DNA of 64,000 bases from Thermoanaerobaculia bacterium (GTDB lineage Bacteria > Acidobacteriota > Thermoanaerobaculia > Multivoradales > UBA5704): NCBI GenBank assembly GCA_035607445.1, contig DATMZM010000208.1, positions 1,286-65,285 on the forward strand, read 5' to 3'. The notes under the pieces were generated by a model. That model made no database searches. It was not told the DNA's origin and worked only from the letters and a program-made list of their open reading frames with translations. Position numbers and translations under genes: made by a program. Below, piece after piece: positions 31,301 through 42,255 of the stretch. Within the stretch, counting starts at the first letter, position 1. Every line of letters starts with the position of its first letter.

Positions 31301-34300
31301 TCGTGGCGGAGTTGTGGGGTGAGGTGCTCGGGGCGGAGCAGGTGGGCGTGGAAGAAGACTTCTTCGAGCTTGGAGGCAGCTCGATCACCGGCGCCGTCCT
31401 CGTCAATCGATTGCAAGAGGCCCTGGCGGAAAGCGTCCCGGTCGTCGCCATCTTCCATCACTCGACGGTCGCCGGCTTGGCGCGTTATCTCGAAGCAGAG
31501 CACGCCACGGGAGTGGCGCGATGGCTGGGTGGCCGCAGCTTGGAATGGCAAGCCTCGGAGTCGACACTGGCTCCGATTCCTTCCGTACCGTGGGCTTCGG
31601 GCGAGCCTCTCGCGCTTTCGTTTGCACAGGAACGAATTTGGTTCCTCGACCGGCTCGATCCCGGGAGTCCGGCCTACAACATCTCGATTGCCGTTCGGTT
31701 GATCGGTGCGCTCGACGTGCCGGCTCTCGGGATGGTGTTCACCGAGGTCGCGCGTCGGCACGCGGTGTTGCGAGCTCGCTACGCCACCGTCGGTCGCGAC
31801 CCCGTGCAGGTGATCGCAAGCCCGAGCGAGTGCCCCCTCCCGCGTGTGGATCTGTCCGCCCTGCCTGCCGTGCTTGCGGAACGCGAAGGGCATCGTCAGG
31901 CGCGCGTTGCCGCGATGCGCCCGTTCGACCTCGTACGCGGCTCGCTCCTGCGCGTGACCCTCGTGCGGTCCGGTGCGGAGGAGCACCTGGTGCTTCTGAC
32001 GCTCCATCACATCGCCGGGGACGCCTGGTCGATGGGAGTGCTGGTGCGCGAGGTCGCGGCGCTCTACGGTGCCTTTCATGCCCGGAGGCCGTCGCCTCTG
32101 CCCGAGCTGGCCGTGCAGTTTCCCGACTATGCGCTCTGGCAGCGACGCCGGTTCATTGCCGGTGGCTTCGCCTCGGATCTCGAGTACTGGCGGCGCACTC
32201 TCGCCGAGCTGTCCCCTCTCGCGCTTCCAACCGACCGCCCGCGGCCGCAAGTGCTCTCTTTCCGTGGCGGCCTCGTTCGATTCGAAGTGCCTGGCATCGT
32301 CGCGGAACGCCTCGAAGCATTGGGTCGAAGCCGTCACGCGACGCTCTACATGACGTTGCTGGCGGGAGTCCAGGCTCTACTGCAGCGCTACGCGGGAGGC
32401 GAGGAAGTAACAGTCGGCTCGACCGTGGCCGGCCGCACCCGCCGTGAGCTCGAACCGCTGATCGGTTTTTTCATCAACACGCTGGCCCTGCGAACCAATT
32501 TCGCGGAAAACCCGAGCTATGCCCTGCTTGTCGCGCGCGTGCGAGAAGCGGCGCTCGGCGCGTTCGAACACCAAGAGCTGCCCTTCGAGAAGGTGGTCGC
32601 GGAGATTCAGCCGGAGCGCGATCTTTCTCGCTCGCCCTTGTTCCAGGTGATGTTCCAGCTTCACCAGGTTCAGGGGGCTGTGCTCGATCTGCCGGGCCTC
32701 GAGTTGCGGGCGGAATCGGCGGAGGCGACATCCGCGAAGTTCGACCTGGTCGTGAACATGACGGCGGTGGGCGAGCGGATCGCTGGGTCCTGGATCTTCC
32801 GCACGGATCTGTACGACGCCTCGACACTCGTGCGCTGGTCGGAGCATCTCCGCCATCTGCTGGCTGCGGCGACGCTCGATCCGGATCGTCGGCTCTCGGA
32901 GTTGTCGTTCCTGGGCGAGGAGGAGCGCGAGCAGCTCGTGGCGGCGTGGGGCGCGGCGACCGGCACGTTCGAAACCTTCTGCTTGCACGAGAGATTCTCC
33001 GCGCAAGCGGCGCTACGCCCGGAGGCGATCGCCGTCGGTCTCGACGATGCGGTGCTCACCTACGGCGCGCTCGAGCGGCGAGCGAACGCTCTCGCCGGCC
33101 GTCTCCAGGGTTTGGGCGTCCTTCCCGGCGATCTCGTCGGGCTGTGTTTCGAGCGGTCGCTCGAGATGGTGGTGGCGATCCTGGGCGTTCTCAAGGCCGG
33201 CGCGGCGTACGTGCCTCTCGATCCTCAGTATCCGCAGGAGAGGCTCGCCTTCCTTCTCGAAGACAGCGGCGTCCAGGTTCTCTTGACCCAGACCTCATCG
33301 CTCGGTGCCCTCTCGTCGCATGGCGCCCGCGTCTTGACGCTCGACGGCCGCGAGGGTCTGGGTGGGGGCGGGAAAGGTGTCGAGCCCGGAGCGTCCGTGT
33401 TGCGTTCGGCGGTCCCGGAGCTTCCCGCGTACGTGATCTACACGTCGGGCTCGACGGGCCGGCCGAAGGGCGTCGTCGTCACCCATGCGAACGCGGCGCG
33501 GCTCTTTGCGGCGACGTCGTCGTGGTTCGGGTTTGGGCCCGAAGACGTGTGGACGCTGTTCCACTCGATGGCCTTCGACTTCTCGGTCTGGGAGCTGTGG
33601 GGTCCGCTGCTGTCCGGTGGGCGTCTAGTCGTGGTTCCGTACTGGTTGAGCCGGTCTCCCGCGGGCTTCTTCGATCTTCTGGCTGAGCAGCGGGTGACGG
33701 TGTTGAGTCAGACGCCGTCGGCGTTCCGGCAGCTGATGTGGGCGGACGAGGCAGCGGAGCCTTCGGCTCTCGCGCTCCGCGAAGTTGTTTTCGGAGGCGA
33801 GGCGTTGGACCTCGGCAGCTTGACTCCCTGGTTCATCCGGCACGGCGACCGGCACCCTCGCCTGGTCAACATGTACGGGATCACCGAGACGACGGTGCAC
33901 GTGACCTACCGGCCTTTGGTGGCCGGGGATACGGCGCGAGGGAGCGTGGTGGGATCCGCGATTCCCGATCTGTCGGTGGTCGTGATGGATCTGCAGAACG
34001 GCCTGGAGCCGGCTCCGATCGGGGTTCCGGGAGAGATCTTCGTCGGCGGCGCCGGATTGGCGCTGGGCTACCTGGGGCGTCCGGACTTGACGGCGGAGCG
34101 GTTCGTGCCCGACCCGTTCGGTGCGCAGGGCGGCGCGCGTCTGTATCGTTCGGGAGATCGCGCGCGTCGCTTGGCGGATGGGGATTTGGAGTACCTGGGC
34201 CGGATCGATCATCAGGTCAAGGTCCGTGGCTTCCGAATCGAGCTCGGCGAGATCGAGGCGACGATCGTGGGATTGCCGGGCGTTCGCGAGTGCGTGGTCG

Positions 34301-42255: not shown

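Follow-up and report, generated by a model that had tools for sequence, protein, structure and literature searches.

Two layers of different age in a block repeated at the ends of two peptide synthetase genes of a Thermoanaerobaculia bacterium

The stretch of DNA analysed here, which we refer to as the window, comprises 64,000 nucleotides (nt) of contig DATMZM010000208.1 (positions 1,286 to 65,285, forward strand) from the Thermoanaerobaculia bacterium assembly GCA_035607445.1. It is filled from end to end by a single nonribosomal peptide synthetase (NRPS) locus with a G+C content of 69%, encoded, as are all the features described below, on the + strand. The 3′ ends of two consecutive genes of this locus, G1 and G2, carry copies of the same block of domains, and within this block a core of 6.23 kb is much younger than the module that follows it. 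The only Pfam families matched in the window are Condensation, AMP-binding, AMP-binding_C, PP-binding and Sulfotransfer_3. The first, second and fourth of these, corresponding to the condensation (C), adenylation (A) and carrier (T) domains, recur with their core motifs over 19 modules, as is typical of a multimodular NRPS. G1 (1..42255) is open in frame 1 from the first nucleotide, so that its left edge lies open, and encodes at least 14,084 amino acids (aa) in the window: a partial A-T module (m0) followed by 12 C-A-T modules (m1 to m12), with a sulfotransferase (ST) domain after the T domains of m5 and m10. G2 (42252..59513; 5,753 aa) holds modules m13 to m17, which in order are Thr, Gly (behind a CmodAA-type C domain), Thr with an ST, Gln and Ser-like. 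G3 (59510..64000) is cut by the right edge of the window and contains m18 (Thr) and the C domain of m19, which is also of the CmodAA type. The start of G2 overlaps the stop of G1 (TTGA) and the start of G3 overlaps the stop of G2 (ATGA). An ST therefore follows the T domains of m5, m10 and m15, that is, every fifth module.

Domain copies were mapped with phmmer using the window's own domains as queries, and the Stachelhaus codes of the A domains were read by alignment to the GrsA-PheA sequence, which returned its known code DAWTIAAICK as a sanity check. In G1 the assignments are Gly for m8, Thr for m9 and m10, Gln for m11 (DAWQFGFIDK) and Ser-like for m12 (DVFHMSLVEK). Those of G2 and G3 are Thr (m13), Gly (m14), Thr (m15), Gln (m16, DAWQFGLIDK), DVFHMSLVEK once more (m17) and Thr (m18). 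The Thr code of the block, DFWSVGMVHK, is the same in m10 and m15, and the two Gln codes are exactly those quoted in an earlier reading of this DNA, below called the original prediction.

Comparison of the window with itself by BLASTN gave one collinear match, 31613-42104 against 48799-59362, extending over 10.6 kb at 78.5% identity (E = 0). Together with the domain map this bears out the original prediction of a block duplicated at the 3′ ends of G1 and G2, both copies of which read A(Thr)-T-ST-C-A(Gln)-T-C-A(Ser-like)-T-tail. The nucleotide identity of about 90% that had been attached to it is too high, as a global alignment of the proposed extent, 32890-42255 against 50095-59513, gives 80.0%, and the block is not uniform. 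From a codon alignment of all of G2 with the last 5,800 aa of G1, examined by a window scan and a three-segment maximum-likelihood model, the region divides into a left flank (G1 up to 32876, G2 up to 50083) at 53.6% nt identity, the core of 6.23 kb (32877-39117 in G1, 50084-56327 in G2) at 86.0%, and the last module (from 39118 and 56328, respectively, to the gene ends, the last 3.1 kb) at 67.6%. Set against the unrelated left flank, which aligns at only 53.6% in the same codon alignment, both layers clearly exceed background in protein identity. At the aa level the core copies are 85-95% identical and the last modules 68-73% (C 72%, A 68% and T 73% between m12 and m17), against a background of roughly 45-55%. 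The differences had been described as scattered point changes, which is a fair account of the core, where there are 4 indels, all in frame, but not of the last module, with its 7 indels and saturated synonymous sites.

The core is a discrete tract with sharp edges, and the older homology (68%) continues beyond it on the right only. Its left change point lies at 32877/50084 (support interval 32876-32895, 20 nt), 13 and 11 nt from the left edge of 32890/50095 first proposed, and its right change point at 39117 (support 39082-39204). The left breakpoint falls at the end of a C domain and the start of the C-A linker (…DP[D/E]RRLSEL…), about 20 aa upstream of a conserved LxxWGxAT stretch, while the right one is just past motif C2 (RHEVLRT) of the next C domain. 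Core copy 1 (32877..39117) thus begins with the C-A linker and continues through A(Thr)-T-ST, which belong to m10, and C-A(Gln)-T, which make up m11, into C(m12), of which it includes some 55 N-terminal aa, ending at the C2 motif. In core copy 2 (50084..56327) the linker is followed by the corresponding domains of m15 (A(Thr)-T-ST) and m16 (C-A(Gln)-T) and by the beginning of C(m17). The recombined unit therefore has the composition linker-A(Thr)-T-ST-C-A(Gln)-T, to which roughly 55 aa from the N-terminus of the following C domain are added. The older layer consists of the remainder of C(m12), the Ser-like A domain (DVFHMSLVEK) and T(m12) in G1 (39118..42111), and of the remainder of C(m17), the Ser-like A domain and T(m17) in G2 (56328..59369). 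The copies are in-phase direct repeats with an offset of 17,207 nt.

The two layers are of different ages and do not merely differ in constraint. For the core the silent divergence (dS) is 0.42 and the replacement divergence (dN) 0.077, giving a dN/dS of 0.18, with differences at 26.8% of the four-fold sites. The corresponding values for the last module are a dS of 1.26, a dN of 0.26, a dN/dS of 0.21 and 52.6%, and those for the unrelated left flank are 1.31, 0.59, 0.45 and 55.4%. The silent sites of the last module are therefore saturated and indistinguishable from background, yet its proteins are still 68-73% identical, which makes the last module an old duplicate with conserved function and the core a much younger copy. 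Both copies of the block are, as read from their sequences, functional and under purifying selection, given the dN/dS of 0.18, the intact open reading frames (ORFs), the in-frame indels and the presence of all the C, A, T and ST core motifs, including HHxxxD(G/A), TSGSTGxPKG, NxYG(P/I)TE and GGxS, in each of them.

When the core is divided into 20 bins, the four-fold divergence is homogeneous among them (chi-square p = 0.77). Identical four-fold sites occur in runs of up to 21, which is within the range of permutations (p = 0.36), and the longest exact nucleotide match between the copies is 59 nt against approximately 45 expected; a search along the core for recent conversion tracts or patches of near-identity found none. 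The uniform silent divergence and the lack of an excess of identical runs point to a single event followed by independent divergence, with no continuing conversion.

No orthologous cluster was found in the collections searched, the best matches being 70% aa in the GTDB species genomes, 66% aa in the JGI metagenomes and 61% aa in a database of 5.8 billion proteins. The close relatives are all metagenome-assembled genomes (MAGs) of Acidobacteriota (Thermoanaerobaculia or Holophagales) or contigs from soil. A member of this set, L003 (JBGAGQ010000039.1, a Thermoanaerobaculia MAG; locus at 1-13433 of a 57-kb contig), has a matching layout, with C-A(Thr)-T-ST-C-A(Gln, DAWQFGLIDK)-C-A-T-tail, a gene break and then head-C-A(Thr). 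It is equidistant from the two core copies of the window (57-76% aa, as against 85-95% between the copies), so that the core event would postdate the split from the L003 lineage. Its third-module C and T domains, by contrast, share 62-71% identity with those of the window, little less than the 72-73% between the two window copies themselves, which places the split of the last modules at an age comparable to that of the L003 split. It is accordingly only in the core that the two copies are clearly closer to one another than to this relative; for the last module the ranges are 68-73% between the copies and 40-71% to L003.

It would seem likely from these data that the two blocks are genuine paralogues within one NRPS assembly line and have two ages: an old shared 3′ end, a later single overwrite of 6.2 kb and independent divergence since. 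An old duplication would have given G1 and G2 the 3′ end that they have in common, which consists of A(Thr)-T-ST-C-A(Gln)-T-C-A(Ser-like)-T and a docking tail, within a wider set of old duplications that would also have yielded the Thr-ST module m5, the Gly-Thr pairs of m8-m9 and m14-m15 and the alike 5′ ends of G2 and G3. Much later, one homologous recombination event, either gene conversion or block replacement, would have overwritten 6.2 kb of one copy, between the edge of the homology on the left, at the junction of C domain and C-A linker, and, on the right, a point in the next C domain immediately behind its C2 motif. The left edge is shared by both layers, as may be expected of a conversion tract that ran leftward until the homology ended. 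The copies would then have diverged independently under purifying selection, both remaining functional, and would install one tripeptide sequence, Thr*-Gln-Ser-like, at two places separated by five modules. The repeating peptide unit built by block duplication that had been proposed thus appears genuine within one assembly line. The docking tails and heads lie outside the converted tract and have diverged strongly, and they presumably keep the three proteins in the order G1-G2-G3.

Several points weigh against this order of events. It draws on the divergence within the window and on one distant outgroup, no orthologous cluster having been found; a dS above 1 is saturated, so that the age ratio is approximate only; and the soundness of the assembly has been judged from the assembled sequence alone. 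An identical pattern would also result from one 9.4-kb duplication at a dS of about 0.4, if the last module and tail of one copy had later been replaced by a diverged homologue from another gene or cluster. Mosaic exchange is indeed common in the locus, and C(m15) groups with C(m5) rather than with C(m10). Such a replacement would, however, require an outside donor with the same unusual code, DVFHMSLVEK. No closer donor is present in the window, where m12 and m17 are mutual best matches (68-73%). An old split in situ would also agree with L003, whose third-module C and T domains are separated from those of the window by about the same distance as lies between the two window copies. We consider the replacement unlikely.

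Ongoing gene conversion, by which concerted evolution would keep the blocks alike, formed part of the original prediction. The core copies are far closer to one another than to any outside sequence found, and concerted evolution is documented for NRPS clusters (PMC4256081). The 26.8% silent divergence is, however, spread evenly over the 6.2 kb (p = 0.77), with no near-identity tracts and no exact match beyond 59 nt. From what is generally known of homeologous recombination, further exchange between copies with 86% identity would be expected to be rare, and we regard continuing conversion as improbable. An assembly artefact, whether from a repeat that was collapsed or duplicated or from the same gene end of two strains joined in a chimera, is hardly credible, even though the source appears to be an uncultured acidobacterium and the related sequences are all MAGs or metagenome contigs. 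A strain chimera would give one divergence level, where dS differs threefold between the core and the last module. The flanking sequences are unique, and no interruption occurs in the ORFs over 59.5 kb, with overlapping stop and start codons at both junctions. The differences are mostly synonymous (dN/dS 0.18), the motifs are intact, and there is no exact match of more than 59 nt to confuse an assembler.

The original prediction had itself taken the divergence as an argument against an artefact, and the two divergence levels, the unique flanks and the mainly synonymous differences strengthen that view. Its description of the block as a classic source of short-read misassembly was overstated, since at 86% identity and with exact matches of at most 59 nt a collapse of short reads is unlikely. 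It had also pointed to direct repeats some 17 kb apart that could drive deletion and expansion. The repeats are there and in phase, at 17,207 nt, and in principle a crossover between them would join G1 to G2 in frame with the loss of five modules, or else produce the reciprocal expansion, but at 86% identity such events are expected to be rare.

The docking regions at the gene ends give a different picture from the core. The C-terminal tails of G1 (42112..42252) and G2 (59370..59510) are both 47 aa long, with net charges of +4 and 0. Far from being near-identical, as had been claimed, they share only 14 of 47 positions (30%), while the adjoining T domains are 73% identical. With a dN of 1.0 and a dN/dS of 0.70 the tails are the fastest-evolving part of the block, and that of G2 is closer to the tail of L003 (42%) than to that of G1 (30%). 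The N-terminal head of G2 (42252..42389), upstream of the C1 motif, is acidic (net charge −10) and is the presumed acceptor for the G1 tail; the head of G3 (59510..59656) is likewise acidic (net −8) and is the presumed acceptor for the G2 tail. These two heads are 42% identical (19 of 45), and the charges of tails and heads are complementary. L003 carries a similar pair of tail and head. A comparison of the tails and heads with Pfam found no docking family, giving two weak matches far below the cut-off (E ~0.04). The differences among the tails and heads would be ample to encode the choice of partner, and we infer that docking keeps the order G1-G2-G3; the puzzle of how the order could be enforced with near-identical tails consequently does not arise.

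Short docking helices of the COM type act between NRPS subunits, where the pairing of a donor with an acceptor helix sets partner specificity. The features found here resemble them in having tails of about 47 aa, of which that of G1 is basic and that of G2 neutral, heads of about 45 aa that are acidic and lie before the first C domain, and overlapping stop and start codons. They differ in that the tails follow a T domain rather than an epimerisation (E) domain and in matching no Pfam family.

Beyond the block, the window holds traces of older duplications. The C-A(Thr)-T-ST module m5 is about 69-71% identical at the nt level to the Thr-ST modules m10 and m15, while A(Gly)-T-C-A(Thr)-T of m8-m9 and of m14-m15 are relatives at 68-71% nt, as are the first 4.4 kb of G2 and the first 4.4 kb of G3. 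Overall, G2 matches the final five G1 modules in collinear fashion at 61.7% aa. A simple tandem duplication of five modules (17.2 kb) is nevertheless ruled out by the residue order of the first two of these modules, which is Gly-Thr in one gene and Thr-Gly in the other, by C(m10) and C(m15) being at background identity and by the different C subtype of C(m14). The identity of C(m10) to C(m15) is 54%, C(m15) being nearest to C(m5) (64%) and then to C(m9) (62%). As the C domains of the left flank are thus unrelated, the region is a mosaic and not the product of a simple tandem duplication. Thr module m9 (28336-31491) resembles a Thr-ST module without the ST, with the next C domain beginning 40 aa after the T domain. 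All three of its domains fall with their counterparts in the modules that bear an ST (T 58-64%, A 72-77%, and C 62% to m15).

Internal direct repeats of at least 1.5 kb with 77-92% identity are common among 145 related loci compared with themselves, with examples of 3.25 kb at 91.8% (L069), 90.3% (L027) and 6.3 kb at 86.5% (L006). The loci with such repeats, which are 1.5-7.8 kb long, include these three as well as L022, L118, L042 and others. Many of the second copies begin at the ST/C junction, which is suggestive of recurrent duplication at the level of modules in these acidobacterial NRPS loci.

The duplication of modules and their concerted evolution are established for NRPS and polyketide synthase (PKS) clusters (Medema et al, 2014; PMC4256081), with examples that include the syringopeptin NRPS, the mycolactone PKS and calcium-dependent lipopeptides. 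The present block shares with these cases the homogenisation of paralogous modules of one cluster by internal recombination, the location of the edges at domain junctions and the building of repeated residues. It differs in that the data indicate one homogenisation event, at a dS of about 0.4 and decayed since, instead of a maintained cycle; the uniform silent divergence of the core (p = 0.77) and its longest exact run of 59 nt show no trace of repeated exchange. The unit is also larger, comprising two modules and a tailoring domain (A-T-ST-C-A-T) rather than just one domain or one module. A-T-C 'exchange units' with a fusion point in the C-A linker have reportedly been used for NRPS engineering by Bozhüyük et al. 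The left breakpoint of the natural unit agrees with this, as it lies where the C-A linker begins, some 20 aa upstream of LxxW(N/G)xT, and the recombined unit likewise begins with an A domain. The right breakpoint differs in falling not in a C-A linker but within the next C domain, about 55 aa from its start and past motif C2, and the natural unit carries an ST.

Each core copy includes one of the ST domains. Those of m10 (34906..35547; Pfam Sulfotransfer_3) and m15 (52110..52748) are 93% identical at the aa level, while the ST of m5 (17695..18336) is an older third paralogue with 65-67% aa identity to both. That these are sulfotransferase folds is supported by the match to PF13469, by the match of the m15 domain to the CurM ST (PDB 4gbm, E = 7e-61), by the loop for binding 3′-phosphoadenosine 5′-phosphosulfate (PAPS) and by the aligned Glu and Lys. 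The homology to the activating sulfotransferases of CurM and OLS (4gbm, 4gox) is clear, with the PAPS-binding loop, PRSG(S/T)T, and the Glu and Lys kept. We found 174 ST domains in the 145 related loci from Acidobacteriota MAGs and soil contigs. In CurM numbering, R39, G41, T43, E60 and K133, among them the catalytic Glu and Lys, are invariant in 175 of 175 ST sequences and S40 is kept in 174 of the 175. His62, in contrast, is changed to Glu, so that the E-L-H triad of CurM becomes E-L-E, in 168 of 172 homologues and in all three copies of the window.

The context of the STs also differs from that of CurM, where the arrangement at the PKS terminus is ketoreductase, acyl carrier protein (ACP), ST and thioesterase (TE). 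Here it is A(Thr)-T-ST-C within an NRPS, with no TE following in the window. Where the context of the homologues could be read it was A-T-ST-C in 119 and A-T-ST followed by no detected domain in 39; the placement after a β-hydroxyacyl-ACP and before a TE catalysing decarboxylative elimination was seen neither here nor in those contexts. The A domains upstream of an ST (n = 141) have Thr codes in about 80 cases, Ser codes in about 42 and Tyr-like codes in 13, so that roughly 87% are Thr or Ser. The CurM/OLS ST sulfonates a β-hydroxyl, thereby creating a leaving group (PMC11730487). By analogy, the STs described here may sulfonate the hydroxyl of carrier-bound Thr or Ser. A search of the searchable literature for A(Thr/Ser)-T-ST-C found no description of it, turning up only the ST of cyanopeptolin OciA and CurM/OLS.

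The C domain that follows the ST is of the ordinary, Txo1/Txo2-like kind. C(m14) (45612-46916) and C(m19) (62924-64000), on the other hand, are only 23-28% identical to the other 17 C domains, their best relatives of solved structure being McyA (8jbr, E = 1.6e-97) and the CmodAA domain of AmbE (7r9x). Each follows a Thr module (m13 and m18, respectively) whose T domain forms its own subgroup. The C domains of McyA and AmbE are of the dehydrating type, and C(m14) and C(m19) are probably dehydrating C domains too, in which case the line would hold two different devices for modifying Thr. The presence of these probably dehydrating, CmodAA-type C domains after other Thr modules hints that the outcome of the ST may differ from plain dehydration. 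Taking the block and its STs together, we offer only as a tentative reading that the core is a natural, portable two-module exchange unit whose defining part belongs to an undescribed class of NRPS tailoring domain, a CurM-like ST with E-L-E in place of E-L-H. It would sulfonate carrier-bound Thr or Ser, so that either O-sulfated residues result or a leaving group makes elimination or cyclisation possible. This modification would be installed at every fifth module in a very large peptide with internal repeats and more than 19 residues, made by an uncultured soil acidobacterium.

Some further features of the locus lie outside the block. G1 runs without a break as one ORF of at least 42.2 kb, with 13 modules, and is still open at the window edge; the largest ORF in Ca. 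Angelobacter is 24 kb according to one survey (PMC9723581). The A domain of m7 (23254-24777; G1 aa 7752-8259) is atypical, having the code DPRHLVLRAK, a core about 25 aa longer and only 34-39% identity to all other A domains of the window. The 19 modules contain no epimerisation domain, and the ordinary C domains are most like those of teixobactin Txo1/Txo2 among solved structures.

The duplication itself is ordinary, a clean case of NRPS lines growing and re-homogenising by recombination at domain junctions. The corrected figures lift two concerns, as the tails are distinct and the repeat is too diverged for assembly collapse. The natural unit, which runs from the C-A linker to the C2 motif and comprises A-T-ST-C-A-T, works in two different upstream contexts and may guide engineering. 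More unusual than the duplication are the CurM-type STs embedded after Thr and Ser modules, and the wider context, with an ORF of at least 42 kb, a periodic ST after Thr modules and an ST family of about 170 members in the Acidobacteriota, is possibly worth a study of its own.

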